Below, in pieces: positions 19,213 to 43,548 of a stretch of 64,000 nt of DNA. The position numbers and the translations under genes are program-made. The notes under the pieces were generated by a model. It made no database searches. It worked only from the letters and a program-made list of their open reading frames with translations, and was not told where the DNA came from. Source of the DNA: an uncultured Thermodesulfobacteriota bacterium (GTDB lineage Bacteria; Desulfobacterota; DSWW01); contig CAYZMM010000004.1 in the NCBI GenBank assembly GCA_964479535.1, positions 70,459 through 134,458 of the forward strand, given 5' to 3'. Positions within the stretch are counted from its first letter, which is position 1; every line of letters starts with the position of its first letter.

Positions 19213-19289
19213 ACCTTTTTTTGGACATCTACCGTATGTCGTGCGGCATCCCCCTTTCGGTCGTAATTGCGACCAATGCCTGACGGGGT

Positions 19290-22448: not shown

Positions 22449-22676
22449 TCACGTCTTCTTCAGGACCGATGCAGGGAGTTCTGCTTGATCGAGGATTGAC
22501 TTGATGGTTTTGGGAGCGAGAGTTTCCTTGGCATGAACCGGAACCGTAACGTGGAGTCTACCGTCTTCGCTCTCGAAATGGTGGTGACTGCCTCTCACGT
22601 GACTCAGAGAGAATCCATGTTTCATCAGGATCCTGCAGAGTTGCTTTCCTGTTACTCTTCCGAGTTTCCGAGTCAA
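22449..22676 (-). CDS. hicA: HicA toxin (mRNA interferase)
   Basis: 75 aa with the RGSHHHF...VTVPVH HicA signature. It has a 4-nt overlap with hicB. Confidence 0.8.
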   Translation of the reverse strand: MTRKLGRVTGKQLCRILMKHGFSLSHVRGSHHHFESEDGRLHVTVPVHAKETLAPKTIKSILDQAELPASVLKKT

Positions 22677-22906
22677 GCCGCGACCTCTATTCTGATTCTC
22701 GCATCCGGCTCAAACTCTCTGGGAACAGGCTTCTTCGCCTTCCTGAGACCCTCGATGTGACAGAGGATAGCCTCTCTCGCCCTGTCTATGCATTGCTCGA
22801 TGTCCTTCCCTTGCGTAACGCAGCCCGGAAGGACAGGAACCGTCACCGTAAACATCTTAGCCTCTTTGTCGTAATACAACTCGATGTTGTAAGTCAGTTT
22901 TCTCAT
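22673..22906 (-). CDS. hicB: HicB antitoxin (UPF0150 / RNase-H-like fold)
   Basis: YNIELYYDKEAKMFTVTVPVLPGCVTQG is typical of HicB. The start is at 22906, with 22924 possible. Confidence 0.75.
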   Translation of the reverse strand: MRKLTYNIELYYDKEAKMFTVTVPVLPGCVTQGKDIEQCIDRAREAILCHIEGLRKAKKPVPREFEPDARIRIEVAA

Positions 22907-22995
22907 ATCAAAATCCTCCAGCATCGAGTAATCTGGATGAGGCTCCGGTAGGCAGCAGCCCTTCACGACACCGAAGCCTGACCAGCAACAACCAA

Positions 22996-23601: not shown

Positions 23602-26600
23602 TCATGCCAGCTCGTCGAGAAGGGCCTTCGCCTCCTTCAGGTCGCGGGTATCGAGGCCCTCGGTGAACCAGTCGTAGACAGGTGCGAGTAGATCGCGGGC
23701 CTCTTGCCTGCGGCCCTGCTTCCGCCACAGGCGGGCGAGGCCCGTCGCGGCACGAAGCTCATAGGATTTCGCGCTCTGGCGCCGCGCTACCTCGAGCGCA
23801 TCGCGGAAGGACGCCTCCGCCCCTTCCGGGTCGGCAGGCGTACGAGCGAGAACCAACTCGGCCTTTACGCGATGCAATTCCGCCTCGCCCCAGTGTTCGC
23901 CGGTCTTCCTCACGAATTCCAGTTCCTCCGCGGCGGCGGCAAGCCCTTCCTCCACTTGCCCTGCCTTCCTGTGTGCTCCGGCCAAGAGGGCAAGATACCA
24001 CGACGATCCCACCACTGCCCCCCTGGCCCGCATACCCTCGATAACAGAGCGCATTCCGGCGATTCCCTCCTGCAGATCGCCCTGCTCAGCGAGAGCCGCG
24101 CCGCGAAAGCCGGCTCCGAATGCCAGATACGAAGGAAACCCCTGCTCGCTCGATAGGGCGATCAGCGTTTCTGCTGTCTCAAGGGAGGCCTTCGACTCGC
24201 GACGAAACATGTGGACGATACCGAGACCGAGGAGGGCAGTTCCCTCACTGAAGGCATGGGAGAGTTCCCGGGCAAGGGCGAGGCCCTGCCGGGCTCTTGT
24301 CAGGGCCTGATCCGCGTACCCGAACGGGAACAGCGTCCAGCTGAAGAAAAGGAGCCCCCATATGCCAACATTGGCTGTGGGCTTGAGGTATTCGTGGCCC
24401 CGGTGCTTCTTGGGGTCGTAGAGGCGGAGGAGCTCTTCGAGATGTTCCCGGGCCTCGTAAAACTCTCCCCGATAGAAGGATGCCACGCCCATGCCGAAGA
24501 GCGCACGCAGGAGTTGTCCCGGGTCGTGTGACTCGCGGGCCACACCGAGCAGTTCCTCGGCGAGCAATTGCGACTTGTCATGCTCAGCACGAGCGATTTG
24601 GACCGTCCGCAGTCCGTTCAACGCCGCAAACAACTGAGAAGCGTCCCCCAGGCACCGGGCGAGATCTCGGGCGCGCACATACGCCTGCTCCGCTTCCGCG
24701 GACGCCAAGCCCTCGATCACGAGCAAAGCCTGGCCGAGTGCGGACTGCACGACCAGCTCCAGCTCGTCCCGCTCCCGGGTGTCGGACAGGGTCTTCAGGA
24801 GTTCGAGAGCCTGCCTGAGCCGGGCGATAGCCTCGCCGTACGCCGAGCGCGCCACCGCCTGCTCACCGGCCAGCCGCAGGTACTCGACAGCCTTGGGCGT
24901 GTTCGCGCTCCGGCCGTAGTGATGGGCCAGTTCCTCGTAATGGGCGTCGAGCGCCTGAGGGTTGAGAGCCTCGATGGCCTGCCCGGTGCGCTCGTGCAGC
25001 ACGCCCCGGCGCTCCCGGAGTAGCGACCCGTACGCCACTTCCTACGTGAGTGCGTGCTTGAACGTGTACTCCGGGTCCGGAAAGGCCGGCCGCTCGTAGA
25101 TGAACTCCGCTGCCTGCAGATGCGAGAGCTCTCTGGAGAGATACTCCTCGGCCTCTCCGGCCACGGCGCGGATGAGGCCCAGGGAGAACTCCTTGCCGAT
25201 CACGGCCAGGGTCTGCAGCAGGTCCTTCTCCCGGGAAGGCAGCCGGTCGATGCGTGCCCCGATCACCCCCTGAACCGTGGCCGGGATGTGGAGTTCTGTC
25301 GGGGATCTCTTCAGACGGTAATGACCCGGCTCCCCTGCGAGCACCCCTTCCTCGACGAGCGTCTGCACCAGCTCCTCCAGGAAGAAGGGGTTTCCCTGGG
25401 TCTTGGAAAGGATGAGCCGGTCCAGGGCCTCCCGCTCTTCTCCCGCCCCTTCGCCCAGAAGGGCACCGAGCAGCTCCCTTGACTCCTCGGCTCCGAAAGG
25501 ATCCAGCCTGAGCTGCGTGTAGCAGGTCCTGCTCCCCCAGCCGTGCCCGTACTCGGGCCGGTAGTTGACCAGCAAGAGGAGCCTCGCCGTGGCCACACTG
25601 TCGACGAGCACGTCCAGGAAGGCCTGCGTCTCGGAGTCGATCCAGTGGAGATCCTCGAAGAGGAGAACACAGGGCTGGTTGAGGGTCTCCCGCACCAGCA
25701 CGCGTTTCACCGCCTCCAGGGCCCGCTGCCGCCGGATCTGCGGGTCCATCTGCTCGAGGGAGCCCGTCCTGTCTCCGATGCCGAGGAGGGTGAAGAGATA
25801 CGGCAGGGTGTCCTCGAGCGTGCGGTCCAGGGCGAGCACGGTCCCGGTGACCTTCTCCTGCCTCCGGCGCTCGTCGTCTTCGATCCGGATTCGGAAATAG
25901 CCCTTCAGAAGTTCGAGCAACGGCAGGTAGGCGTATGCCTTGCCGTGGGAGACCGAGAAGCCCTCGAGCACGCGGCAGCCGCTCGTAAGCTGCTCTTTGA
26001 ACTCGTAGAGGAGGCGCGACTTGCCCACACCCGCCTCGCCCAGCACTGCCACGATCTGCCCGCGGCCCGCCCGGGCTGCCTCCCAGGCGCGCTCAAGCTC
26101 TCCCATCTCCCGCCGCCGGCCCACGAAGCGCACAAGCCCTCGCCTCGCGGCTACCTCCATTTTCGTTCGCAGGGGGCCCACGCCCTGCAGCTCGAAGACA
26201 CGCAGCGGTTCCTGCACGCCCTGCACGTTGAAGCGGCCCAGATCGCTGAGGCGGAGCGCCGCGTAGCACGCCCGCTGCGCATGGTCCTCGTGGGCAATGG
26301 GCGCACCGAACAGCGCCATGATCCCGTCGCCCGTGTACTGGTTCACGGTTCCTTCGAAGCGGTGGACCCCATCGGCCAGGATCTGGAAGAAACGGTCGAG
26401 GATGCGGTGCCACTCCTCCGGGTCCACCTGCTCGGCCAGCTCCATGGACCCCTTCACGTCGGCGAAGAGGACGGTCACCTGCTTCCGCTCCCCATCCAGT
26501 GCGGACCCGGACTGCAGAATCCTGTCGGCCAGGTGTTTGGGCGTGTAAGACTGAGGCTGCAAGTGGTCTATCGTGGCGGCTTCAACAGGCTTTCTCAGGT

Positions 26601-26778: not shown

Positions 26779-27183
26779 CTATAGCAATTTCACCTGTCTC
26801 AGGGCCTTGACCTTCCTGTGAAGCTTCTTGTCTGACGTGACGAGATCACACGCAAGCCGCCTTGCCAGCTCGACATATGCGGCATCGTAGAGGGTGATTC
26901 CATAGCGTCTGGACAATCGGATGGCGCTCGAGAACTCCTCGAATCCAAGGTCAAAGACCTGGAGGTCAAAATTCCACAGCATGGAGAACACCTCGGAGAC
27001 CGCCCCTGCATCCAGCCTTGTCCGCGTTAGGAGCACGTTGGCCGCTTCATAGAAGAACAGGTCCGGCACGGCGATCGGCTCTTCTCCGGAAACGTGCACG
27101 TCCCTGTAACGAAGGGCTCGATCACTGCCTTCCTCGTTCTCAAAGATCCACTTGAGGACGACCGATGCATCCAATACGATCAT
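26779..27183 (-). CDS. vapC: VapC PIN-domain toxin
   Basis: MIVLDASVV...YEAANVL...YDAAYVELA...TSD gives the PIN acidic residues. A 4-nt overlap with phd is present. Confidence 0.8.
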   Translation of the reverse strand: MIVLDASVVLKWIFENEEGSDRALRYRDVHVSGEEPIAVPDLFFYEAANVLLTRTRLDAGAVSEVFSMLWNFDLQVFDLGFEEFSSAIRLSRRYGITLYDAAYVELARRLACDLVTSDKKLHRKVKALRQVKLL

Positions 27184-27458
27184 CTGCTGTCTCTCATCTC
27201 GCGGATTGCCCCCGTCACATCCGTTCGGCTGGTCTCTTTCCCATGTCGCTCTTTCCACTTCTCCATGCCTGCACAGATCTCCTGAAGTTTCCGGCCCCTC
27301 TCCTTTTTCAGTATCCTCTCCTCATACTCATCTACGGAAATGATGACCGCGAGGGGCTTGTTTGCCCTTGACACGATGAAGCGCTCCTTTCGGTCGTGAA
27401 CCTCGTTCAGAATGCTTCCGAGCTTCTTCCTTAGGTCCAGCGCAGTCAGTCTCTTCAT
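27180..27458 (-). CDS. phd: Phd/YefM-family antitoxin
   Basis: 93 aa. FIVSRANKPLAVIISVDEYE is classic for Phd/YefM. Confidence 0.75.
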   Translation of the reverse strand: MKRLTALDLRKKLGSILNEVHDRKERFIVSRANKPLAVIISVDEYEERILKKERGRKLQEICAGMEKWKERHGKETSRTDVTGAIREMRDSR

Positions 27459-27480
27459 TGTCTTCTCCCTTCTGGGTTCA

Positions 27481-27510
27481 ACTATACTATGAGCTATCAT
27501 AGTCACTATG
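27481..27510 (-). promoter_or_regulatory. putative phd-vapC operator: inverted repeat CTATGA-N4-TCATAG plus ACTAT direct repeats immediately upstream of phd
   Basis: The palindrome at 27487-27502 lies 30-50 nt upstream of the phd start codon. Confidence 0.35.
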
Positions 27511-27732
27511 TCAATGAGATCTGGCCTGGGCTCCCTCCGAATGCGCCCTAAGACGTGATGCACGCGAGGGCCTCCCGGGCGCGGGTGAGCCAGTAGCTCC
27601 AGGGGGCGTTCATTTCCAGGCATACGGCTTCCGCTTTTTTCAGGTTACCCACGGCTTCTTCTCTTCTCTCCGGATCGGCGAACAGCCCCCCGAAGCGGTA
27701 GGGTGGATGAAGCGAAGCGAATCCGCCACAGT

Positions 27733-30700: not shown

Positions 30701-31116
30701 TCGCCGGTGTACTGGTTCACCGTTCCCTCGAAACGGTGCACGCCGTCCGCAAGGATCTGGAAGAACCGGTCGAGGATCCGGTGCCACTCCTCCGGGTCGG
30801 TCTGTTCAGCCATTTCCATCGAGCCCTTTACGTCTGCGAAGAGGACGGTGACCACTTTCCGTTCGCCCTCGATCGAGCTGCGGGTCGTGAGGATCTTTTC
30901 GGCAAGGTAGTTCGGGGTGTAGGACCGAGGTTGGGAGTAGTCGACGGCGGGCGTTGCTACGGGCTTGGTCAGGTCATGGGCGCAATCGCCGCAGAACTTA
31001 TCGTTCGGAAGAACTTCAGCCCCGCACTGAGGGCAGGCGAGGACGAGTCTCGCCGCACATGCCCGGCAGAACTTCTTGTTATCCGGGTTGTCCGTCTGGC
31101 ACTGAGGGCATTTCAT
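27733..31116 (-). CDS. double Zn-ribbon - class III nucleotidyl cyclase (CHD) - AAA/STAND NTPase - TPR protein, paralog 3 (intact, 1127 aa)
   Basis: Two CPxC...CxxC ribbons are followed by a full CHD domain, a P-loop NTPase and long TPR-like C-terminal helices. No interruptions are seen. Confidence 0.85.
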   Translation of the reverse strand: MKCPQCQTDNPDNKKFCRACAARLVLACPQCGAEVLPNDKFCGDCAHDLTKPVATPAVDYSQPRSYTPNYLAEKILTTRSSIEGERKVVTVLFADVKGSMEMAEQTDPEEWHRILDRFFQILADGVHRFEGTVNQYTGDGVMALFGAPIAHEDHAQRACYAALRLSEGLQRYAAELKREKGLRFSVRMGLNSGEVVVGKIGDDLRMDYTAQGQTVGLAARMEQLAEPGKAYLSEHTAKMVEGLCRLGDLGRFNVQGVQEPLRVFELQGVGPLRTKMEVAERRGLSRFVGRQREMEQLQRAWEAAQAGRGQIVAVLGEAGVGKSRLLYEFKGQLTSGCRVLEGLSVSHGKAYAYLPLLELLKGYFRIGLEDDERRRREKVTGTVLTLDRTLEDTLPYLFTLLGIGDLTGPLEQMDPQIRRQRTLEAVKRVLVRETLDQPCVLVFEDLHWIDSETQAFLYVLVDSVATARLLFLVNYRPEYGHGWGSRTCYTQLRLDPLGDVEARELLTALLGDEASADRTELERLIMAKTQGNPFFLEELVQTLVEEGVLAGEPGHYRLKRSPGELHIPATVQGVIGARIDRLPSREKDLLQTLAVIGKEFSLGLIRAVAGEAEEYLSRELSHLQAAEFIYERPAFPDPEYTFKHARTQEVAYGSMLRERRGAIHERVGQAIEKVYSETLDEHYQELAHHYGRSANTPKAAEYLRLAGEQAVARSAYGEAIDRLRQALELLKTLPETRERDELELSLQSALGQALDVTETFASVEAEQAYLRARDLAECLGNASQVFAALTGLRAGQQVRAEHDKARLLAEELLRVARESRDPGQLLRALHAMSGTSFYRGEFSEAREHLEEFLGLYDPKKHRGHDYLSASANVGVWGLFFFSWTLVSLGYPVQALKRALEGLALARELSDPFSESVALFCISRIYLERRDSKASLQTAEAVINLSSEHGFAYYLAFGAWLRLEALTEEGQLQEGIAGMRSVLQGMRARGAVLGSSWFLALLARAHRKAGQVEEGVALVAQGLEFVTKTDERMMEAELHRVKGELLLGHTPADQVGAEASFRDALEVARRQSAKSYELRAATGLARLWQQQGCKQKARELLAPVYHWFTEGFDTRDLKEAKALLEELT

Positions 31117-31175
31117 CCCGGCGCGTCCCGCATGGAGGATGGGTGGGAGTGACTCGGGGTGCTCGCGCTCGGGGG

Positions 31176-31365
31176 TGTTCTAAATGCTAGAAAATAAAGA
31201 TAAAGGAGTCAATAATTGTTTTGCGTCAGGTAGGGCGGGGGCCGTCTCGATGTGAGATGATGGCAAATTTCAACCGATTTGTTTTTTCCCGTATGTTTCA
31301 AATACTTGTGTTCATCTTGATGGATTGGCACGGCCGTTGCTCTACCCTGATCCAACAACACCCTC
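31176..31365. repeat. divergent-promoter module, copy A; homologous to 38968..39236, with a degenerate third copy near 22240..22290
   Basis: GTTCTAAATGCTAGAAAATAAAGATAAAGGAGTCAATAATTG and GATGGATTGGCACGGCCGTTGCTCTACCCTGATC are conserved between the copies. Confidence 0.6.
31326..31341 (+). promoter_or_regulatory. sigma54 (RpoN) -24/-12 promoter, TGGCACG-N4-TTGCT, oriented toward the MMPL-CNB gene
   Basis: A perfect match to the sigma54 consensus with correct spacing. The identical element recurs at 39191-39206. Confidence 0.55.
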
Positions 31366-31548
31366 TTCTCGCTGAACGAGGCGATGGAGCACTCCATCCT
31401 CCTGGGATTCTGAGCATTGGAAGTTCCCCCGGGGCCTTCCGCCGATTCACCGCAGGGCGGTGGATCGCGTTGACACCGGATTCCGGACTCCCCTATACTT
31501 CACCCCAGGCGGGCACCTCTCATCTTCTCTCAAGAAGATGGAGAACGT

Positions 31549-34296
31549 ATGGACCGATTCTACGGTTGGATCGTCCGCAGGCCGAAGCTGATTCTCCTCC
31601 TCCTCGTTCTTCCCACAGCATTCCTTGCCCTTCAGGCGCGACACATCCGGTTGGACAGCTCCATCGAGAGCCTCCTGCCGAGGGAAGACCCTGAAAAGAA
31701 GTACTACGAAGAGATTCGTCAACTCTACGGCAGTGACGAGATCGTCGTGATCGGCCTCATGGCGGACAACGTCTACAGGCCGGAAACCGTTCAGAAGATC
31801 GAGCGGATCACGGAAAAGATCCGAGAGATGCCCGAGGTGAAGAGCGTTGCGAGCCTCACCAACGCGCAGGATGTGATCAAATCCGTTGCCGAGGACACCC
31901 TGCTCATCCCGGAGATTCCCACCACCGAGGAAGGATGGGAAGAGGTCAAGGGCAGGGTCGCCGAGCACCCCGTCTATCTGAAGAACCTGGTCTCCCCCGA
32001 TGGTCGCGCGGCCGCGATCAACGTCACCTTCCTGGAGAGTGTGTCGGACGAGGCGTTCCTGCGCCGCGGGATCGACGAGAGAATTCAGAAGATCCTGGAC
32101 GCGGAACAGGGGCCGGAGAAGCTCTACTACACGGGGCTTCCTCGCTTCAAGGTCCACGTGGTCCAATCCATGCGGGGAGATTTGAAGTCCTTTCTCCCCC
32201 TGGTGCTGCTCTGCATCGCTGTCGTCATGTTCGCAAGCTTCCGCTCTCTGCGTGGGGTGATCCTGCCTGCGGTTACCTCCGTCGTAGGCCTGACCTGGAC
32301 CCTCGGGATCATGGTGCTGGCCGGAAGTTCCCTGAGCCTGGGGAGCATCACACTTCCCCCTTTGCTCCTCGTCCTGGGCACGGTCTACTCCCTGCACGTG
32401 GTGGCCGAGTACTACGAATTGGCCCGGCCCGGCACGCCGGCGGGCGAGGTGGTCCTCGAGACCCTCAGAAAGACCGGAATGCCCGTCCTGATTACGGCAC
32501 TGACCACCGCCCTGGGCTTCGCGGCCCTGGCCGTGAACCGCATCGTCAGTATCCGGGAGATGGGCCTCTTCTCCGCAGCAGGCATCCTGTTCGCCTTCCT
32601 GCTCTCGGTGACCCTTGTGCCGGCGATCCTCTGCCTGTTGCCGCTGCCCAAGAGGCGGGCAGACCGGTTTTCGCCCGTGTTGACCTCGACACTTCAACGG
32701 ATAAGCCGCCTGGACATCCGATACCGCAGGCCGATCATCCTTGCGGGAATCCTCATTGCGGTCCTCGCAGCCTGGCAGATTCCCTCGATCATGGTGGACT
32801 CGAACTTCCAGTCCTTCTTCCGCAAAGACGACCCGATCCGCAAGGCCAGCGATGTCATCAACGAGCATCTTGCCGGAAGCTCTGCCTTCTACGTCACCAT
32901 CGACGGCGAGAAGACGGGCCTCGTGAAGAAATGGGACACCTTGAAGCGAATCAAAGAGCTTCAGCTCTACATCGACGCTTTGCCCGGAATCGAGAAGACG
33001 ATTTCCCTGGTGGACTACTGCGAGATCCTGGACAGAGGGATTCAGGCCGTGCCCCCCTGGGAGGAACCGCCCGAGCCGCAGGAGCCGGAGCCCCAGACGA
33101 CCTTCTGGGAGAATCCTTCCCAGCTCGACGGCGTCATGCAGCTGGTGTTCCTGAATGCGAAGAGCATATCCGGCGTTGCGAACCATCCCGTGTTCTCGCG
33201 GACGAACATCATCGTTCGCACCTCCCTCACCCACGCCAGCGATGTGGCCGCCACGGTGGAGAAGATCGAGGCGTTTGCCGCCGAGACCTTTCCCCCGGAG
33301 CTCACCGTGAGGACCACCGGCGAGTTGATCCTTCACACTCGCACGAGCGGCGACATCGTGAGGGGGCAGATTCAGAGCCTGGGGCTTGCCGCCGGGATCA
33401 TCTTCCTCGTCATGTCGACCATGTTTCTCTCCGTTCGGATCGGCCTGATCGCCATGGTTCCGAACCTCTTCCCGATCATGGTCTTCTTCGGGCTCATGGG
33501 CGCCTCAGGGGCCGTCCTCAGCCTGAGCACGAATATCATTGCCGCGATTGTCCTGGGGATCGCCGTGGACGATACCATCCACCTCATGTCACGCCTGAGT
33601 TCCCAGGTCAGGGCAACGGCCGACCGGGAAGAGGCCCTCCTTCACACCTTCTCCACCGTGGGGAAGCCCGTCTTCTACACGTCCGTGATCCTGTTCCTGG
33701 GCTTTCTCACGCTCTGCGTCTCCTCCTTTGTGCCGATCCGGGAATTCGGCATTCTGGCCGCCTTCACGATGATCGTGGCTCTTGGCGCAGATGTGGTCTT
33801 GTTGCCCGCCATCCTGTCGACCACGCGGTTCATCACCCTGTGGGATCTGCTCTATCTCAAGCTGGGCCGGGATCCGCACAAGGTCATTCCCCTCTTTGAC
33901 GGACTGAGGCCCTTGCAGGCCAAGATCGTCACCCTCATGGGCGAACTCAAGACCTTCACCCACGGCGATGCGATCGTCCGTCAGGGGGATATGGGCAATG
34001 AAATGTTCGTTCTGCTCAAAGGCACGGCGGAGATTCACATCCAGGCCGAAGGCCGGTCCAGACGCATTGCCGGGCTCGAGAGAGGGGACGTCTTTGGAGA
34101 AATGGGACTGCTTCGCCATCATGAACGCACGGCAGACGTCGTTGCTTCCGAAGATGTGGAAGTCCTGGCCGTAAACGAGCGCTTCCTCTCGCGCATCAAG
34201 CGCCGGTACCCGCGAATCGGCGCCCAGATCTTCTTCAATGTGGCAAAGATCCTCAGTGACCGCCTCGAAGAGGCAAGAAAGGTCCCCTCGGTATAG
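31549..34296 (+). CDS. RND-superfamily MMPL/HpnN-like exporter (two SSD/12-TM halves) fused to a C-terminal cyclic-nucleotide-binding (CAP-family) domain
   Basis: 915 aa with MMPL-type TM/periplasmic-loop topology. The last roughly 120 aa carry FGEMGLL...R..TADVVA, the cNMP phosphate-binding cassette. Confidence 0.75.
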   Translation: MDRFYGWIVRRPKLILLLLVLPTAFLALQARHIRLDSSIESLLPREDPEKKYYEEIRQLYGSDEIVVIGLMADNVYRPETVQKIERITEKIREMPEVKSVASLTNAQDVIKSVAEDTLLIPEIPTTEEGWEEVKGRVAEHPVYLKNLVSPDGRAAAINVTFLESVSDEAFLRRGIDERIQKILDAEQGPEKLYYTGLPRFKVHVVQSMRGDLKSFLPLVLLCIAVVMFASFRSLRGVILPAVTSVVGLTWTLGIMVLAGSSLSLGSITLPPLLLVLGTVYSLHVVAEYYELARPGTPAGEVVLETLRKTGMPVLITALTTALGFAALAVNRIVSIREMGLFSAAGILFAFLLSVTLVPAILCLLPLPKRRADRFSPVLTSTLQRISRLDIRYRRPIILAGILIAVLAAWQIPSIMVDSNFQSFFRKDDPIRKASDVINEHLAGSSAFYVTIDGEKTGLVKKWDTLKRIKELQLYIDALPGIEKTISLVDYCEILDRGIQAVPPWEEPPEPQEPEPQTTFWENPSQLDGVMQLVFLNAKSISGVANHPVFSRTNIIVRTSLTHASDVAATVEKIEAFAAETFPPELTVRTTGELILHTRTSGDIVRGQIQSLGLAAGIIFLVMSTMFLSVRIGLIAMVPNLFPIMVFFGLMGASGAVLSLSTNIIAAIVLGIAVDDTIHLMSRLSSQVRATADREEALLHTFSTVGKPVFYTSVILFLGFLTLCVSSFVPIREFGILAAFTMIVALGADVVLLPAILSTTRFITLWDLLYLKLGRDPHKVIPLFDGLRPLQAKIVTLMGELKTFTHGDAIVRQGDMGNEMFVLLKGTAEIHIQAEGRSRRIAGLERGDVFGEMGLLRHHERTADVVASEDVEVLAVNERFLSRIKRRYPRIGAQIFFNVAKILSDRLEEARKVPSV

Positions 34297-34341
34297 AGCG
34301 AGTTGCCCGAACAGCCTTGCCGGGGAACCAGGGAGGCAGAG

Positions 34342-35169
34342 ATGAAGATCACCTTCTATGGCACCCGAGGCTCCACGCCCATACCTGAACCGGATTACTT
34401 CCAGGTCGGCGGCAACACACCGTGCGTCCTGTTCACTTCCGACAACGGAAGAATCGCCATCTTCGACGCGGGCACGGGAATCCGCAAGCTGGGCAACGAA
34501 CTGCTGGCTCGCGGGCACCAGCAGTTCGACAATATCTTCATCGCCCTCTCACATACCCACTGGCATCACATTCAAGGGTTCCCCTTCTTTCTCCCCGCAT
34601 ACGATCCGGCCCGCCACTTCACCATCACCATTATTGGAAGAGAGCGAGAGACGAAGAACCTCGAGGACATCTTTTCGACGCAGATGCAGCGCGAGTTCTT
34701 CCCCGTTCCCCTGGAGAAGATGGGGGCGAAGATGACCTTTTCCACACCCGAGACAACCCGTTTTACCACGCCGATTACAGGAAACAAGGTGATTACGCTC
34801 AGGCACAACCATCCTGGTGGGGCCTACAGCTACCGCGTCGAGGGTTCCGGAAAGACCTTCGTCTACTGCACGGATGTGGAACACACGGATGGGATCGATC
34901 CGAACATCGTCGCCCTCGCCAGAGAGGCCGACCTTCTGGTCCATGATGCACAGTTCACCCCGGAGGAGCTGAAGGAGAAGAAAGGCTGGGCCCACAGCAG
35001 TTGGGAGCAGGCGGTGGAGGTGGCGGAGCAATCCGGCGCAAAGAGACTGGCGCTCTTTCATCACGATCCGGAACACAGCGACCCCTTTCTCTTCCGAATG
35101 GAGAAAGCGTGTCAGAAGCGGTTCGCAGAGGCCTTTCTTGCCCGAGAGGGAATGGAAATCGAGTTATAG
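34342..35169 (+). CDS. MBL-fold metallo-hydrolase (atypical HTHWHH motif); candidate cyclic-nucleotide phosphodiesterase by context
   Basis: SHTHWHH, a CTDVEH motif and a C-terminal HHDPEH follow the MBL pattern. A GGGAGG RBS precedes the ATG at 34342. Confidence 0.55.
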   Translation: MKITFYGTRGSTPIPEPDYFQVGGNTPCVLFTSDNGRIAIFDAGTGIRKLGNELLARGHQQFDNIFIALSHTHWHHIQGFPFFLPAYDPARHFTITIIGRERETKNLEDIFSTQMQREFFPVPLEKMGAKMTFSTPETTRFTTPITGNKVITLRHNHPGGAYSYRVEGSGKTFVYCTDVEHTDGIDPNIVALAREADLLVHDAQFTPEELKEKKGWAHSSWEQAVEVAEQSGAKRLALFHHDPEHSDPFLFRMEKACQKRFAEAFLAREGMEIEL

Positions 35170-35502
35170 ATCGTCGTTTTCCAAGCGAGGTGCACGTGTG
35201 TAAGGATGTCGTCCAAGCCCCCATGCGGCCATGAGGCAGGGTTCGATATCATTGTGGAGAGGCCACAAGAACTTGACCAGCTCCGCAATTGGAGAAGTAG
35301 CGTTTTCGGCGTGGCCCTTCGTGAAGGCAAGGTTCTCCATGAAGCGGCGTGGTGATCCTGAAGTGGCGGCCTGGCTGAAGAAGGCACAGGGTGATCTCCG
35401 TATGGCTCGTCCGGCCATCGAGACGGAAGATCCGCTTTAGGACCAAGCGTGAATTCGGCGGCATTCAGAATGGAGTCGTCGCCTGCCAACGGCCTGAATT
35501 CC

Positions 35503-37359
35503 TTATCCTTCCGAAGGTAAATCTGCCAGCTCCTTCCTAACCTTCTCCGGCTCAATCAGGGCACCCAATCGCTCGAGAATCTTCACGGCATCGGCCAGGT
35601 ATTCGCGGGTCTTTTCCATGTTTCCTTGCATCTTGTAGAAGCGGCCCATAGACGCGTAGGCTAGGGCGAGTTCATTCTCGGCCTTGTTTTCCTTTGCCAG
35701 TTCCACACTTCTCTCAAAATGGGGAAGACCTTCTTCCGAACCGGTTGCCACGGCAATTTCTCCAAGCAGTCGGTAAGCCCATGGGAGGAACACGCGCCCG
35801 TTGCGGCGGGATTGCAGTTCAAGATGTACGTCAAGCATTTCCCTCGCTTTATCGTGCTCTTGTTCCGAACAGAACACTTCTCCTAGAATGGCGGTGGAGA
35901 AGAGTTCGGCCACTACGAATCGCGAGCTTCTGAACAGAGGGATAAGAGTCTCGATCACCTCCGGTTCTTTCCCTACATTGCCCGTTCGGCAACGGGCCCA
36001 GGCCAGGCATGTTATCGCCAGAGCCATGTCTCCCGGCGTGGAAGCCTTTTGCACCGCCAACTCGCCATATGCTATCGCTTGCTGGAGATCCCATTTGAAC
36101 GTGTGCGATACGCATAGTGTGAAGTAAGACCATGAGCTGTTGCTGTTATCCGCGTAGTTCTCAGCGATCCTGCATGCCTCTTCACCCAGCTTTTCCGCCT
36201 CACTCCACCGTCCGAGAAATGCGTTCGTCCATGTTGCTGCATTCAACGCCCACACCGAAGTACGGAGGTTGAACTGTTTGTCCATCTGGGCGAAGCACTT
36301 CTCCTTCAATGAGGACACCGCCTCCAGATCGCCCAACCACATATGATCCCATTCCATAATGCAGTACGCATACCCTGCATCTTCAGCATTTCCCGCCGAC
36401 TCACACAGTTCGGCCGCTTTACTCAGTGTAGATATGCCTTGCCGTGGGAGACCGAGAAAGCTTCCAGTACCCGGCATCCCTTAGCCAGAGGTGTCTTGAA
36501 CTCATAGACAACGCAACAGGCCTCGTTTCGCCGACACCTCCAAGGGGGTCCTTATCGGCCCTACGCCCTGAAGCTCGTATACACGCAGCGCCTCCGAGGT
36601 TCCCGCGATTTTCGACTCCCCCAGGTCCAGGAGTTGGAAAACCCCCTCCACGAGCCGCGCCGTGTGTTGGCTCAGATAGGCGTGGCCCGGCTCTGCGAGT
36701 TGCTCGACTCGCTGCGCTAAACCCACCGTCTGCCCCTGAGCCGTGTAGTCCATGCGCAGGTCATCTCCGATCCTCCCCACCACCACTTCCCCGGAATTCA
36801 GGCCGAGACGGGCCGAGAAGTTCAAGCCCCGCTGCAAGCGAAGCTCTTGCGCGTACTTTCTAAGTTGCTCACAGAGTGCCAGAGCCGAGTAGCAGGCCCT
36901 CTGCGCATGGTCTTCGTGCGCGATAGGCGCACCGAAGAGCGCCATGATCCCGTCACCCGTGTACTGGTTGATGGTCCCTTCGTAACGGTGGACCCCATCG
37001 GCCAGGATCTGGAAGAAACGATCAAGGATCCGGTGCCACTCCTCGGGGTCGACCTGTTCGGCCAACTCCATGGACCCTTTCACGTCGGCAAACAGCACCG
37101 TCACCTGCTTCCGTTCGCCTTCAAGTGCCGACTTGGTCTGGAGGATCTTGTCGGCGAGATATTTGGGGGTGTAGGACTGAGGCTGAGAGTAGTCGATCGA
37201 AGGGGCCTCCGCGGGCTTTCTGAGATCATGGCCGCATTTCTTGCAGAATTTGCCATCCGCGGGCGTCTCCGACCCGCATTTGGGGCAACGGTATTCGATG
37301 GGATTCCCGCAGTCGATGCAAAACTCAGCATCGTCAGGGTTCTGTTTGACAAAGCCCGT
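35503..37359 (-). pseudogene. Zn-ribbon - cyclase - [AAA domain deleted] - TPR paralog 4; no start codon ahead of the Zn-ribbon
   Basis: Cyclase ORF 36502..37104 and TPR ORF 35503..36477 lie in different frames with no P-loop region between them. The Zn-ribbon coding sequence (37105-37359) follows the acyl-CoA ligase TAG stop in frame, without any ATG/GTG/TTG. Confidence 0.65.
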
Positions 37360-38937
37360 CTACTCTCCTGACAGGGTTTTCGCTTTGAGGGTTCTCTTGT
37401 CTACCTTTCCTGTGGGATTGATGGGCATGGAGTCAAGGAATCGGATATCCCGGGGACGCTTGTAGTCGGCCAGTTTGTCCTGGGTGAAATCGTGGAGTTC
37501 TTCGGCTGTGACCTTCTCGCCCGGCTTCAGTGCCACGAAGGCCAGTACGTCTTCGCCGAGCTCCGGATGGGGCTTTGCAACCACCGCGCACTGTCCCACA
37601 GCCGGGTGTTCGTACAAAACACTCTCCACCTCCAAGGAGTAGACGTTGAATCCCCCGCGGACGATCATGTCCTTCTTGCGGTCTGTGAAGTAGAGGTAAC
37701 CCTCGTCATCGCTCCGTCCCATGTCTCCGGTGTAAAGCCAGCCGTCTCGTAGGGTCTGCGCGGTAGCTTCCGGGTTCTTGTAGTATTCCTTCATGACGTT
37801 CGGCCCACGGAGGACGATCTCTCCCACGTCTCCAGGGTCCAGGTTGTGTCCCTGGTCGTCCACGATCCGGAATTCCTGTTCCGGTGCCCACGGATGGCCC
37901 ACCGATCCAAGCTTGGTGTGTGTTTCAGCCGCATTCAGGGTTGTCCCACCGGTCCCCGCCTCTGTCAGGGCATAGGTCGTGTATACCTTGATACCCGGCC
38001 ACGCAGCGTGCACTCTCCGGATGACTTCCTCGGGCATGGCCGCAGCGCCCGAGATGAGCGACCGAAGGGAGGAGGTGTCGAACTCTCTGAATCGAGGGTG
38101 ATTCAAGAGGAAGACAAACATGGCGGGTGCACCGCCGTAGCTCGTGGGCCGTTCCTTCTCGATGGTCTCAAAGGTCTTCACCGGGTCGAAGGTTTCCTCG
38201 AGGATGAGTACCGGCGCGGAATAGAGCCACAACATCATGACCGAGCTGCAGCCGCTCGAGGTGAAAAAAGGGTAGCAATTCTGGGTGCGGGGCACTCCGT
38301 GATGAAGGCGTGACAAACCTAGGGAAGCGCCGATCAATCGGCCACAGGCAACCTTGTTCGCCTGGGTGAGTACAACCCCCTTCGGAAGGCCCGTGGTCCC
38401 GCTTGTGTACAATATGTCGGCTTCATCGTCCGGGCCGATGGAGACTGCCGGTGGAGAGCCCGAGGAAGCCATCCGCTTCGTGAACGATTCGACCCAGTCC
38501 GGCAGTTCCTGTCCCTCCTTTTCGATTCCCACATAGCCCTTGATGTTCAGCCGCTCCCGTATCTGATCGACCAGGGGAAGGAAGTCGTGCCCTCCGATCA
38601 TCCAGTCCGCGTCCGAGTGCTCCACGATGTACTCCACTTCCCGCGGGACCAGCCGGACGTTGATCGGGACGAACACGGCACCCAGCTTGTGGATCGCGAG
38701 GTACGTGTAGTAGCACTCGACGCTGTTGGTGAGCATGAACGCGACCTTCTCACCCTTCTTCACACCCAGGTCTGAAAGTCCGGCCGCGAGCCGTGTCGAC
38801 TGCTCGTCCATCTCCCCCCAGGTGTGACGAAGCCACTCCCTGGTCCGGTACGAGAAGGAAACAAAGGCCTCCCGGTCCGGGAAGTCGTCCACGTTTCGCT
38901 CCAGCAATTCGCGAATGGTCTCCGGTGCTCGCCACAT
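37360..38937 (-). CDS. acyl-CoA synthetase (AMP-binding enzyme, medium-chain/aryl type)
   Basis: 525 aa with the YTSGTTGLPKG adenylation motif. It ends on a TAG stop. Confidence 0.8.
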   Translation of the reverse strand: MWRAPETIRELLERNVDDFPDREAFVSFSYRTREWLRHTWGEMDEQSTRLAAGLSDLGVKKGEKVAFMLTNSVECYYTYLAIHKLGAVFVPINVRLVPREVEYIVEHSDADWMIGGHDFLPLVDQIRERLNIKGYVGIEKEGQELPDWVESFTKRMASSGSPPAVSIGPDDEADILYTSGTTGLPKGVVLTQANKVACGRLIGASLGLSRLHHGVPRTQNCYPFFTSSGCSSVMMLWLYSAPVLILEETFDPVKTFETIEKERPTSYGGAPAMFVFLLNHPRFREFDTSSLRSLISGAAAMPEEVIRRVHAAWPGIKVYTTYALTEAGTGGTTLNAAETHTKLGSVGHPWAPEQEFRIVDDQGHNLDPGDVGEIVLRGPNVMKEYYKNPEATAQTLRDGWLYTGDMGRSDDEGYLYFTDRKKDMIVRGGFNVYSLEVESVLYEHPAVGQCAVVAKPHPELGEDVLAFVALKPGEKVTAEELHDFTQDKLADYKRPRDIRFLDSMPINPTGKVDKRTLKAKTLSGE

Positions 38938-38967
38938 AGTGCTCCCCCATTTCTCGGTGATGAAACC

Positions 38968-39236
38968 GTTCTAAAACATAGAAAATAGAGATAAGAGTGT
39001 CAATGATTTCTTTGTGTTCGGAAAGGTGTGGGCGCCGTGAAGGGGGATGGCAGCACATGTCAATCGAGTGGGCTTTTGGATAGTTCCTTTTTGCTCGTAA
39101 AGAAAATATACGAACCGTCGGCAGTTGCAGGCTCCTCCGCATTCTTCTAAAAGCTATACACTTTGGGGGTTTATGTTTGGCCTGATGGGATGGCACGTCC
39201 GTTGCTCTACCCTCTGATCAAACAAGAAACCCAAAC
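38968..39236. repeat. divergent-promoter module, copy B (homolog of 31176..31365)
   Basis: On the minus strand it gives TTGACA-17-TATGTT upstream of the acyl-CoA synthetase. On the plus strand it gives the sigma54 element. Confidence 0.6.
39191..39206 (+). promoter_or_regulatory. sigma54 -24/-12 promoter, TGGCACG-N4-TTGCT, oriented toward the small ORF and the PAS kinase
   Basis: The core is identical to the element at 31326-31341. Confidence 0.5.
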
Positions 39237-39271
39237 ACGGAGGACAGCATGAGAGAAGGGAGGGTGTCACA

Positions 39272-39478
39272 ATGAAAGCGAGTAGAAACACCATCCGACT
39301 CCGAGGGCCGGCTGATGTTTCGTCGCCCTGGGAAGAGGTGAAGGAGTGGGCGAGAAGGAACGTCACGAACGATAGGGTTGCTGAGGTCAGCCTGTCACTG
39401 GCGGCCGCTGCTTCGCTATGCTATCTGGGAGCCAGGATCTTCGTGGGTGTGCAGAACTACGTGATGTATGCCTATTAG
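39272..39478 (+). CDS. hypothetical small protein (68 aa) with a C-terminal hydrophobic segment
   Basis: A GGGAGGG RBS sits 8 nt before the ATG. It lies about 55 nt downstream of the sigma54 element. Confidence 0.35.
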   Translation: MKASRNTIRLRGPADVSSPWEEVKEWARRNVTNDRVAEVSLSLAAAASLCYLGARIFVGVQNYVMYAY

Positions 39479-39501
39479 GCGGGTTACGTCTGAGCTGAGG
39501 G

Positions 39502-39521
39502 ATTCCCGCCTACGCGGGAAT
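39502..39521 (+). terminator. stem-loop ATTCCCGC-ctac-GCGGGAAT downstream of the small ORF
   Basis: An 8-bp perfect stem with no T-tract, so a classic intrinsic terminator is doubtful. Confidence 0.2.
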
Positions 39522-39736
39522 GACTGAGAAGTGAGCGAATGAACCGCACCTCCAAGCCACCCCTGGATTCCGGCGAGTGCGGTAATGGCGGGTCCTGCTA
39601 TGATGTGCAAGAATAGACGGCCCCTCAAAACCGAAGGCTTCACGCTCACTCCTTCACTTCGGCTCTCCCCCAAAAAGCTTCTCCCAAATGTAGAATCCAT
39701 TGTTCTCCCCCCTGCAATTGCAGAAAATCTATTTCC

Positions 39737-39764
39737 TTGACAAGATAATTTTAATTTATATAAA
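39737..39764 (+). promoter_or_regulatory. sigma70-like promoter (TTGACA-16-TATAAA) with a 12-bp perfect palindrome CTGCAATTGCAG at 39712-39723 just upstream
   Basis: An AT-rich tract sits ahead of the kinase gene. Confidence 0.35.
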
Positions 39765-39883
39765 GTTTATTTGCCGCAGAGGTCCTGTGCCCCCAAGGAC
39801 TACTCGCCCTTACGTTGCTCTCTCTGGTGCTCATCCTGCCCCGGAGGGGGACACTGTTTCGCCTTTTGGAGCGAGAAGCTGAC

Positions 39884-42649
39884 ATGAAAGAAACGGACTG
39901 GACGAGAGAACAGCTCATGGAAGAATTGCATCGTCTCCGGAACCGTGTTTCAGAGTTAGAGCAGATTGGAATCCAATCAAAACGAGATCAAGAAGATCTT
40001 CGCGAGAGCGAAGAGCGATTTCGTGCGATTTTTGAGGGTTCCCTCGACTCGATACTCCTTGCGGATCCTGAAACGGGTGAAATCCTTGATGCAAATCCAG
40101 CATCAGAACAGCTGCTCATGATGTCCCGAGAAGAAATCATCGGCCTTCACCAGACTCAGGTACACCCAATTCGTTTGAGAGAGACTGCAAAAGCTGCTTT
40201 CTTGCGAATTGCCTACGAAGCGGATCATCAGGTTCCAGCTGAGACCGTCTTACAGCGTTCGGACGGTAAAGAGCAGTCCGTCGAAATCCTGTCACAGGTG
40301 ATTCAAGTAGACGGTAAGCCTGTCATGTACGGCGTCTTTCGTGACATCAGTGCCCGGAAGCGAGATGAACGGGTCATAGCTGAGTCACGGGAACTACTTA
40401 GAAAGGTATTCATAAGCCAGTTGGATGCCATTTTCGTGCTCAATTCAGACAATCCCCCGAAAATCCTGGACTGCAATCCAGCAGCTACAAAGATCTTTGG
40501 ATATAGCCGTGAGGAAATGCTGGGGCGCACTGCAGACTTCGTTCACGTTACGGAAGGAACCCTTAGAGAATTCCAACACCTTGTGCACCTCGCAATATCG
40601 GAAAAGGGTTTCTTACATCTGCCTGAATTCAAAATGAGGAGAAAGGATGGAACGATCTTTATCAGTGAGCACAGCTTGGTTCCCCTGCTGGACGGACAAA
40701 ACGACCGGATTGGCTGGGTCAGCCATGTACGGGATATCACCGAAAGGAAGCAAAGTGAGGAGGCGCTGCGACGTAGTCAGCAGAGGTTTCGCGCAATCTT
40801 CGACCAAACGTATGAACTCATCGGACTGATGAGCACGGATGGGATTCTCATCGAGGCAAACAGAACGGCCCTCGACTTTGCAGGACTCCACGAATCAGAC
40901 GTAGTGGGAAAACCCTTTTGGGAGACCGCGTGGTGGACCCACTCGGCTGAATTACAGCAACGACTGCAAGACGCCGTGTCGAAAGCCGCCGCAGGACAGT
41001 TCGTTCGCTTTGAAGCGTGTCATCCAGACCGGAATGGTGAGATTCATTTGGTTGATTTTTCCCTAAAGCCAGTGAAGGATCGAGAGGGAAATGTCATCCT
41101 TCTGATTCCCGAAGGTCGAGACATAACGGATCGTGTACGAGCCGAGGAAGCCCTGCGGCATTCCGAGAGACGGTATAGAACCGTCGTTGAACATGCGCGG
41201 GACTTGATCTATACAGTTTCTACGGACACCCGGATTACCTCCTTGAGCCCTGCATTCCAGACTGCTACCGGTTGGCACATGCGTGAATGGATTGGTAAGT
41301 CCATAAAAGAGATCGTTCATCCAGATGACTGGCCATTGGCCCTCGAGATGGGAATGCGTTCCTTGAATGGGGAGAAACCGCCGATCCATGAGCTGCGCAT
41401 AAGGACAAAATCTTCCGAATACATTACGATGGAATTCAGTATCGCAGGTCATATGGAGCATGAAGGGTTGAGTGGTATCATCGGTATCGGACGGGATATT
41501 ACGGAACGGAAGCTCATGCAACAAGAGCTCCAGAAAGCACAGAGGCTCGAGTCACTGGGGACTCTTGCAGGCGGTATCGCTCATGATTTCAACAACATTC
41601 TGACACCCATTCTTGCAAACATATCGATTGCGAAGACCTTCGGAAACCTGGATGACGATATTGCAGAAGCCCTGGCAGATGCAGAAAAGGGTTGCCTTCG
41701 GGCGCAGGGCTTGACGCAGCAGTTACTTGCGTTCTCAAAAGGCGGCCTCCCGATAAAGGAATTGGCCTCAATTTCTCGTCTGTTGATCGAAGAAGCCCGA
41801 TTTGCTTCGAGTGGCTCGAATGTAAGATGGGAGTACTCCATACCGGCAGATCTTTGGCAGGTGGAAATAGACCCGGCCCAGATAGGACAGGTTATTCGGA
41901 ATCTCATCATAAATGCAGATCAATCGATGCCCGAAGGAGGAACGGCCAGAATCGAAGCCGCAAATGTAACGTTGGGGTCGGATACAAACATATCCCTGGA
42001 GGAAGAGAAGTTCGTGAGGATCGTTATTTCGGATAATGGAGTGGGTATACCACCAGATCATTTGCCAAAAATATTCGATCCATTCTATTCGACGAAAGAC
42101 AAGGGGAGCGGCCTCGGGCTCTCGATCTCGCATATGATTATAGAACGACATCACGGATCGATTGATGTTCAATCTGAAATGGGAAAAGGGACCACTTTTA
42201 GCATCTACTTGCCTGCATCGGAAAAGGATGCAGCTGCAGATGATGAAAAACGTACCGAGACGTTGAAGGGTAAAGGTCGCATACTCGTGATAGATGATGA
42301 CAGAGCAGTTCGAAGATCCGTTGAGGAGATGTTGAGACGTTTGGGATATGATGTCGAGTCTGCAAAAGACGAGCACGAAGGATTGAGACTCTATCGAGGT
42401 GCCAGGGAATCGGGCCGGCCTTTTTCCACCGTCATCATCGATTTGACTATTCCGGGGGGGATGGGAACACGGGAAGCAATTAACAGACTGAAGGAGGTGG
42501 AACCTGGGGCGAGGCTAATTGTCTCCAGCGGCTATTCTGATGATCCGGTAATGGCTGAGTTCAGACAGCACGGTTTCGAGGCTGCCCTGAAGAAACCCTA
42601 TTCCATTCAAGAACTTGCCGAGATCGTCTACAAGGTTGTGATGAGATAG
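39884..42649 (+). CDS. multi-PAS hybrid sensor histidine kinase (PAS x about 5, HisKA, HATPase_c, C-terminal receiver)
   Basis: It shows an H-box (IAHDFNNILTPI), N/G1/G2 boxes and a receiver domain with D at IIDLTIPGGMG. Its GC content is visibly lower than in neighbouring genes. The alternative start is at 39815. Confidence 0.85.
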   Translation: MKETDWTREQLMEELHRLRNRVSELEQIGIQSKRDQEDLRESEERFRAIFEGSLDSILLADPETGEILDANPASEQLLMMSREEIIGLHQTQVHPIRLRETAKAAFLRIAYEADHQVPAETVLQRSDGKEQSVEILSQVIQVDGKPVMYGVFRDISARKRDERVIAESRELLRKVFISQLDAIFVLNSDNPPKILDCNPAATKIFGYSREEMLGRTADFVHVTEGTLREFQHLVHLAISEKGFLHLPEFKMRRKDGTIFISEHSLVPLLDGQNDRIGWVSHVRDITERKQSEEALRRSQQRFRAIFDQTYELIGLMSTDGILIEANRTALDFAGLHESDVVGKPFWETAWWTHSAELQQRLQDAVSKAAAGQFVRFEACHPDRNGEIHLVDFSLKPVKDREGNVILLIPEGRDITDRVRAEEALRHSERRYRTVVEHARDLIYTVSTDTRITSLSPAFQTATGWHMREWIGKSIKEIVHPDDWPLALEMGMRSLNGEKPPIHELRIRTKSSEYITMEFSIAGHMEHEGLSGIIGIGRDITERKLMQQELQKAQRLESLGTLAGGIAHDFNNILTPILANISIAKTFGNLDDDIAEALADAEKGCLRAQGLTQQLLAFSKGGLPIKELASISRLLIEEARFASSGSNVRWEYSIPADLWQVEIDPAQIGQVIRNLIINADQSMPEGGTARIEAANVTLGSDTNISLEEEKFVRIVISDNGVGIPPDHLPKIFDPFYSTKDKGSGLGLSISHMIIERHHGSIDVQSEMGKGTTFSIYLPASEKDAAADDEKRTETLKGKGRILVIDDDRAVRRSVEEMLRRLGYDVESAKDEHEGLRLYRGARESGRPFSTVIIDLTIPGGMGTREAINRLKEVEPGARLIVSSGYSDDPVMAEFRQHGFEAALKKPYSIQELAEIVYKVVMR

Positions 42650-42834
42650 GATAACCGACTTATCCCTGGACTCGGCGGTTGAGAAATCTCGTTGCCGCAC
42701 CCCCGGTGCAACTTCGTGAAATGGCTCCTTCCCTTCCTGTTTCTCTTTCCGGGCTCAATGGGGTGCCGGGTGGATCGGTTGCATTCGGCGGCTTCGGTCC
42801 TCTTGCCTGGCCGATGATGGGCGCGGGGCGCTGC

Positions 42835-43548
42835 TCAGGAGGATCTTCCGGCCGACGACTGTGAGATCTCCAGGCCCACCAGCCGTGCGACGAGCACCAC
42901 GAGATAGATCTGGCCGATGATCGCTTCCAGGACGGAAAGGTTCTTCGCGACCGCCGTCCCTCCTGTGAGGTCACCGTACCCGAGGGTGGTCAGGGTGGTG
43001 AAGCTGAAGTAGAGGGCCTGGCCGGCGCCGGTTCCGTAGAAGGCCCTCGGGTCTCCCTCCGGGATGACCTCGCCGCCCGCGAGGAATGCCCCCGGATCGA
43101 GGAACTCCAGCAGGGAATAGAGGGTCGCGAAGATCACCCCGAGAAGGAGGTACGAACAGAGGGCGGCGCAGATCGTGTCGAAGGTCACCCGCTTCGCCTT
43201 GAGCACGTAGGAGAGGATGGTGCCTCCGATGTAGAGGAAGAAGAGGATGGCAAGGATGTGTCGCGCCTCGGCATAGGAGGCGGCCGGGTCGAAGTGGTCG
43301 AGCCAGATCAAGGCCACCGCAGGCACCAGGAGCGCAAGTGCGGTCAAGAGAGAGGACAGCTTCCCGCTCCCCGAGTAAGCGCCCACGATCAACATGGCGG
43401 TGGCCAGAAGATCATAGAGGGTGAAGCCCCGATCATCCGATCCCAGGAAGGGGCCCAAGAAGATGAAGACCATCAGGAAGACCAACAGAAAGAAGAAGCG
43501 CCTTTCTCTCGAAAACACCCAGTTCTTCACGATCGATCCGAACGGCAT
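42835..43548 (-). CDS. potassium channel family protein (pore-loop TTLGYGD)
   Basis: It contains the selectivity-filter sequence TLGYGD, flanked by TM helices. Confidence 0.7.
   Translation of the reverse strand: MPFGSIVKNWVFSRERRFFFLLVFLMVFIFLGPFLGSDDRGFTLYDLLATAMLIVGAYSGSGKLSSLLTALALLVPAVALIWLDHFDPAASYAEARHILAILFFLYIGGTILSYVLKAKRVTFDTICAALCSYLLLGVIFATLYSLLEFLDPGAFLAGGEVIPEGDPRAFYGTGAGQALYFSFTTLTTLGYGDLTGGTAVAKNLSVLEAIIGQIYLVVLVARLVGLEISQSSAGRSS

Follow-up and report, generated by a model that had tools for sequence, protein, structure and literature searches.

The window considered here is a stretch of 64,000 nucleotides from an uncultured Thermodesulfobacteriota bacterium (contig CAYZMM010000004.1), which carries four paralogous copies of a gene of the class III cyclase/STAND NTPase/TPR type. 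The fourth of these, copy 4, lies directly behind a gene for an acyl-CoA ligase, in frame with the TAG stop codon of the latter. This raises the question of whether copy 4 is a gene of its own, a part of a larger fusion, or a relic, and from where its parts have come.

With high probability, copy 4 is a chimeric pseudogene that lost its activity recently and has no function of its own, at least three junctions or deletions having built it. The original prediction had described it as a dead, start-less remnant and is supported in this respect: the start codon, the first zinc knuckle and the Walker A motif are missing, and the tail is foreign. The subfamily to which copies 1-3 and the front of copy 4 belong is here called A-type. 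Another cyclase/NTPase/TPR subfamily, to which the TPR tail is 43-65% identical at the amino acid level, is here named B-type. The features are collected in Table 1.

Table 1. Positions of the parts of copy 4, of the adjoining ligase gene and of a related relic in the window
Feature	Position	Strand	Remarks
Acyl-CoA ligase gene, intact	37360..38937	(-)	525 aa; native TAG at 37362-37360
Breakpoint 1, end of ligase-linked DNA	37356..37357	(-)	3 nt past the stop, after ACG; from the L082 alignment
Open 285-codon frame (ribbon remnant, linker, class III cyclase)	36502..37359	(-)	Ends at TGA 36504-36502
Truncated double zinc ribbon	37222..37356	(-)	No start codon; first knuckle without its two Cys
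Scar of the 116-nt deletion	36508..36511	(-)	Walker A region lost, frame shifted; blastn against copy 1
Residual A-type NTPase segment, wrong frame	36432..36509	(-)	About 78 nt encoding VYEFKTPLAKGCRVLEAFSVSHGKAY
Breakpoint 3, A-type/B-type junction	36432..36441	(-)	Short similarity, A: GGCAAGGCAT; B: GACAAGTCCAT
B-type C-terminal TPR tail, about 311 codons	35503..36435	(-)	TPR_12 (Pfam)
Second B-type tail relic, last ~79 codons	23131..23367	(-)	Closely downstream of copy 2; 61% identity to the B tail of L083 by tblastn, E = 5e-24

The cyclase part

The cyclase domain itself is intact and occupies positions 36574-37113 of the minus strand, that is, residues 83-262 of the 285-codon frame. It is recognized as a class III cyclase by the Pfam profile Guanylate_cyc (PF00211; 79 bits against a cutoff of 21.9), and its best solved relative is CyaB (3r5g, E = 3.5e-28). 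The two metal-binding Asp residues are present, with FADVKG and YTGDGIM of copy 4 aligning with FSDIRG and FVGDCVM of CyaB. The canonical substrate Lys is replaced by Gln (TINQYTGD versus TIDKFVGD in CyaB) and the transition-state Asn by Gly (TVGLAQR versus VNLASR). Since copies 1 and 3 and the A-type gene of the metagenome contig L083 (5276-6265) have the same two substitutions, these are a family trait and not a sign of decay. Judging from these residues, the A-type cyclases may have an unusual activity or specificity. The B-type gene, unlike the A-type cyclases, keeps VNLASR.

Over 228 codons copy 4 is collinear with copies 1 and 3, without any indel or stop, and blastn finds 86% nucleotide identity to copy 1 at 37197-36517. 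The dN/dS ratio against copy 1 is 0.09 at a dS of 0.62, and with copy 3 as outgroup just 9 amino acid changes fall on the copy-4 branch, beside 50 nucleotide changes. In the public record, gene callers have predicted two proteins at copy 4, one of 198 amino acids (P0132) and one of 324.

It could be imagined that the first of these is real, namely a stand-alone, unregulated cyclase of 198-200 amino acids that starts at GTG 37104 or 37098 and is transcribed together with the ligase. The intact catalytic domain with both metal-binding residues, the strong constraint on the amino acid sequence and the database entry would all fit such a protein, as would the neighbouring genes for a cNMP-binding MMPL transporter and an MBL-fold hydrolase. 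However, both GTG triplets are ordinary conserved Val codons in all copies, inspection by eye reveals no convincing Shine-Dalgarno sequence at a proper spacing, and no full-length relative is without the ribbon, the NTPase or the TPR module. A low dN/dS is, moreover, equally expected of a gene that has died recently. A free cyclase therefore seems quite improbable, and the 198-residue "cyclase" and the 324-residue "TPR protein" are better regarded as pieces of one chimeric pseudogene than as separate genes.

The NTPase lesion and the foreign tail

Behind the cyclase domain, a deletion of 116 nt near 36510 has taken out the stretch VGR...GEAGVGKSRL, which contains Walker A. A short similarity of the form CGC-Y-T is found at both edges of the gap. 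As GEAGVGKS lies inside the deletion, copy 4 has lost the P-loop of the STAND/AAA_16 type, and the Pfam profile AAA_16, which gives 84-88 bits with copies 1-3, has no match in copy 4. What remains of the NTPase beyond the scar is recognizable at the nucleotide level: in blastn, an island at 36433-36479 is 85-87% identical to copies 1 and 2 over 46-47 nt, including exact matches of 26 nt, and the remnant is 75% identical to copy 3 over 76 nt. Read in the frame of the cyclase, it gives the stops TGA 36504-36502 and TAA 36483-36481. The claim that the cyclase and TPR parts are out of frame does not hold, because the distance from 37104 to 36477 is 627 nt (3 x 209): both parts are in one frame and are separated by these two stops. 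Likewise, the idea of a single excised NTPase segment of about 1.2 kb is right as to the loss of the P-loop, but 78 nt of the NTPase survive in a shifted frame, and three lesions and two paralogue subfamilies are involved.

The homology to copies 1-3 stops at about 36433, and past this point blastn detects no nucleotide similarity to any of the three. The homology to the B-type gene of L083 begins at the Ile codon at 36435. The ATG at 36477, with which the open reading frame 35503-36477 begins, is fortuitous. The TPR tail has no nucleotide similarity to the tails of copies 1-3 and only 21% amino acid identity (copy 3), whereas its identity to the B-type gene of L083 amounts to 65% for amino acids and 74% for nucleotides, gapless over 315 codons and with a dN/dS of 0.20. 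Thus, the statement that the cyclase and TPR parts of the copy survive needs a qualification: the cyclase domain is intact and a TPR_12 match is present, but the tail is not copy 4's own. With a 5' part of A-type, as follows from its 86% nucleotide identity to copy 1, and a tail of B-type, copy 4 is a chimera.

The L083 contig is instructive as it contains a full B-type gene directly upstream of an A-type gene, in tandem, the latter being 70% identical to the front half of copy 4. As a general rule, such a pairing of A- and B-type genes is not supported, most B-type loci being single genes. Eighty metagenome loci with B tails were surveyed, 48 of which extend far enough upstream to be informative. 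In 47 of these 48, the tail stands behind its own B-type cyclase and NTPase, at a distance of 2122-2193 nt (median 2187). In copy 4, about 0.7 kb separates the B tail from the cyclase, which is of A-type.

A natural family of Zn-ribbon/cyclase/TPR proteins without NTPase, at which the protein P0007 (522 aa) seemed to hint, is rejected on account of the full architecture at these 47 loci, and copy 4 is not to be taken for a new NTPase-less architecture. The one exception (L124) and the proteins P0007, P0048 and P0145 look like independent internal deletions. In P0007 and L124, which come from other metagenomes, in-frame deletions join the cyclase straight to the TPR part, and the junction of P0007 lies at most a few residues from the entry point of copy 4. 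P0048 joins the ribbon to the TPR part and P0145 joins the cyclase to the last 30 residues, again in frame.

The second B-type relic, downstream of copy 2 (Table 1), shows that B-type genes were once inside the array. A similar short B-tail relic is seen in the intergenic region of L083, at 1605-1651.

Assembly support

Another assembly of these sequences is available as contig L081 (Logan assembly of run SRR7048227), which is 100% identical to the window over 37015-34392. This span includes the 116-nt deletion, both stops and the A/B junction; the assembler is independent, although the reads may be common to both. The region 37016-37357 is covered by one assembly. L081 ends inside an exact repeat of 35 nt that is shared with copy 2 (36986-37020).

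It might accordingly be suspected that one or more of the junctions are artefacts of assembly, in which paralogues have been mis-joined and two separate loci or an intact gene are hidden. Exact repeats, 35-37 nt in length, are indeed shared by the paralogues of the array, L081 breaks off at 37015 within one of them, and many database homologues appear frameshifted near the P-loop. Nevertheless, the deletion and the A/B junction recur identically in the second, k-mer-based assembly and are located outside the repeats, breakpoint 1 connects two unique sequences, and a repeat of 35 nt is shorter than a normal read. We therefore regard an artefact as very improbable.

The frameshifted homologues are a phenomenon in themselves. 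Many proteins of about 300 amino acids (for example P0128, P0130, P0154, P0205, P0221 and P0243) have out-of-frame tails that begin just past the cyclase or inside the P-loop. These could reflect real decay or indel errors in G+C-rich long-read assemblies.

The upstream boundary and the TAG codon

The ligase gene upstream of copy 4 is complete. Its product has the Pfam domains AMP-binding (274 bits) and AMP-binding_C and is of the PRK06187 type (NCBIfam, 459 bits). The 10 complete orthologues that were examined (55-83% amino acid identity) have 524-532 residues and a common end point. The closest relative, with 90% nucleotide identity and a dN/dS of 0.15, is on a Logan contig from another sample (L082). 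There, the ligase ends in ...KAKYLSGE-TAG-ACG (GAG-TAG-ACG), as in the window, and is followed by unrelated DNA with another gene. As the same GAG-TAG-ACG is present before the two sequences part, the TAG at 37362-37360 is the ligase's native stop, and the ACG behind it is also on the ligase side.

The alignment with L082 runs through 37357 (GGAGAGTAGACG) and then diverges. As the next outgroup, L001, which is the best of the orthologue loci with 83% amino acid identity in the ligase, is not alignable with the window downstream of the ligase, breakpoint 1 could represent either a deletion in the window or a replacement in the lineage of L082. Between the window and L001 there is no synteny match beyond the ligase gene itself, and exact-protein contig look-ups with the ligase and with copy 3 gave no match. 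To the question, asked in the original prediction, of whether ligase and cyclase are normally separate, the answer is affirmative: none of the 80 ligase-related metagenome loci fetched has a cyclase within 10 kb.

The codon after the TAG, ACG at 37359, opens the 285-codon frame, which starts with TGFVKQNPDDAEFCIDCGNPIEYRCPKCGSETPADGKFCKKCGHDL. In this frame, ATG, GTG and TTG are absent from the TAG at 37360 up to GTG 37104, the first start-type codon. It is thus confirmed that the Zn-ribbon codons follow the ligase stop in frame and without a start, and copy 4 is presumably not an expressible gene, as the 5' end of its homologous frame lacks any of the three start codons. The ribbon is also incomplete. 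The DZR match begins at position 7 of the 45 positions of the Pfam profile in copy 4 and at position 1 in copies 2 and 3, and of the four N-terminal CxxC knuckles of a double zinc ribbon (PF12773) three are left. All close homologues of the cyclase piece begin with M-x-C-x-x-C, with 10 residues to the next Cys. By this spacing, copy 4 has lost codons 1-4, and Phe (TTT, 37353-37351) occupies the site of the second Cys of the first knuckle. The in-frame position of the remnant behind the TAG is a one-in-three coincidence of the truncating junction.

Two simpler accounts of the missing 5' end were considered and rejected. A start codon mutated from ATG to ACG, preceded by the AGGAG in the last ligase codons as a ribosome-binding site, is at odds with L082, which has TAG-ACG without a cyclase behind it. 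An indel of 2 nt that would hide the Cys of the first knuckle (CTT TGT CAA AC versus CAG TGC CAG AC) is taken to be a chance match, since the spacing puts Phe 37353-37351 at the Cys site. A scan for promoters and terminators yielded nothing usable at the junction of ligase and remnant, and an Rfam scan of 34000-40500 yielded just a sub-threshold chance match to a miRNA.

Amber read-through or a recoding of this TAG, programmed or of the pyrrolysine type, had been proposed as an alternative and would create a ligase-ribbon-cyclase fusion of about 811 amino acids, for which the 285 open codons in frame behind the TAG could speak, but it is hardly credible and unsupported: TAG-ACG is a native ligase end without cyclase in L082, TAG is the stop of 16 of the 42 predicted genes in the window, a tRNA scan of the window found no tRNA gene, the 120 best homologues of the cyclase piece are all without an AMP-binding domain, the 80 ligase loci have no cyclase nearby, and the ribbon would have to be fused without its first knuckle. 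The in-frame TAG is therefore not a recoding candidate.

A possible course of decay

A chimeric pseudogene, the reading that we prefer, could have arisen along the following lines. A break 3 nt past the ligase stop would have removed the promoter, the ribosome-binding site, the start codon and the first zinc-knuckle codons, and would at the same time have brought what remained of the cyclase gene right up to the ligase. Short sequence similarity at its edges probably mediated the 116-nt deletion, which took away the Walker A P-loop and shifted the frame. In a further illegitimate junction, what was left of the A-type NTPase was linked to the final ~311 codons of a paralogue of B-type. The donor of the latter most likely followed as the neighbouring gene in a tandem array of mixed A- and B-type, and in that case the implied loss is about 5 kb rather than an excision of 1.2 kb. 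The adjacency of the donor and the order of the events are what we infer; the remnant itself would now be merely co-transcribed as a 3' tail of the ligase, without productive translation.

Both halves of copy 4 contain zero internal stops or indels. Together with the dN/dS values of 0.09 and 0.20, this points to a selection that lasted until recently and to young lesions, and hence to a recent inactivation of copy 4, as far as this can be read from sequence comparison.

Beyond annotation, the significance is small: copy 4 is an ordinary broken gene. Still, the locus offers a clean worked example of tandem STAND-cyclase paralogues that decay via short-homology deletions, and it illustrates that the two halves of one remnant can stem from different paralogues.

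The surrounding array

Copy 4 is not the only damaged member of the array. Copy 1 (ORF 19290-22121) also lacks a zinc ribbon and a start codon, its homology to the other copies beginning from ...APIDYSRPQSY. Copy 2 is split by an in-frame TAG at 25042-25044, exactly at the conserved Gln of FKHALTQEVAYG, which looks like a CAG-to-TAG nonsense mutation. In addition, in the region 26255-26470, an in-frame deletion of about 81 codons takes away half of its cyclase domain.

The cyclase paralogues are interleaved with toxin-antitoxin pairs. Upstream of copy 1 are a HicA toxin (22449-22676) and a HicB antitoxin (22673-22966), and between copies 2 and 3 (26779-27623) are a VapC-like toxin with a PIN domain and a Phd/YefM antitoxin. 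Between copies 3 and 4 there is a transporter of the MMPL/RND type with a C-terminal cyclic-nucleotide-binding domain (31549-34296). It is followed by an MBL-fold hydrolase (34303-35169), which matches a family of cyclic-nucleotide phosphodiesterases weakly and below the threshold. The two could form a local cNMP signalling module.

The base composition is uneven as well. The G+C content is 0.50-0.62 at 31000-43000 and 0.61-0.71 in the rest of the window, in which further spots of low G+C are located at 18-19 kb, 22-24 kb and 27-28 kb. With 0.61, the G+C content of the A-type part of copy 4 is below that of its counterpart in copy 1 (0.65), and in the B tail it is 0.54. This suggests that copy 4 and its neighbours have a history different from that of copies 1-3.

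The original prediction noted that both ends of the array abut AMP-binding ligases. This is literally so, but these are not halves of one gene and belong to different subfamilies. The left one, next to copy 1 (18676-19365), is a fragment of the FadD6/PRK08279 type with about 117 homologous residues (model positions 230-346 of 605). The right one is of the PRK06187 type, and a single ligase gene split by the island is accordingly rejected.

It is possible to speculate further, although we consider the idea unlikely, that copy 4 captures one moment in the birth-and-death turnover of NLR-like (STAND) cyclase sensors that form a mixed tandem array, in which microhomology deletions shuffle effector and sensor halves between subfamilies beside toxin-antitoxin modules. 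If this were true, such an array would resemble a rapidly evolving locus of immunity or surveillance, and the cyclase piece, being still intact, might keep some activity.

Comparison with known systems

Multidomain proteins that combine a class III cyclase, a STAND (AAA_16) ATPase and TPRs are known, for example Rv0386 of Mycobacterium tuberculosis (bioRxiv 10.1101/2024.03.06.583649). Copies 1-3 share this order of cyclase, P-loop STAND ATPase and TPR, and so do the two parents of copy 4. Unlike the Rv0386 type, the family described here carries a double zinc ribbon at the N-terminus and lacks a LuxR HTH. Copy 4, which has lost its start codon, its Walker A motif and the greater part of the NTPase and ends in a foreign TPR tail, is a relic rather than a working member. 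Like the A-type cyclases, Rv0386 presumably also has Gln at the position of the substrate Lys.

A second point of reference is TIGR03903 of NCBIfam, the kinase/cyclase fusion of TOMM systems. Copy 3 aligns to positions 276-1266 of the 1267 positions of this model, which comprise its cyclase, ATPase and TPR portion (E = 1.6e-130). However, the scores of copy 3 (437 bits) and copy 4 (47 bits, for the cyclase part alone) are both below the cutoff of 705.75, and a zinc ribbon stands in place of the N-terminal kinase, so that neither copy is a member. The resemblance to PycC of the Pycsar systems is of a more general nature. The cyclase domain matches the PycC models of PADLOC with 81-86 bits, but the match covers just the generic class III fold, and the architecture differs.

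A parallel for the state of copy 4 may be found in another kind of system. Chimeric and unitary pseudogenes arise by illegitimate (microhomology) deletions in tandem paralogue arrays, such as NLR clusters. By analogy, in copy 4 too a deletion would have fused neighbouring paralogues, with short similarity at the junctions and with several other decayed copies and relics in the same array. The difference is that the fusion in copy 4 is not a productive, in-frame one, two stops being left between its halves.
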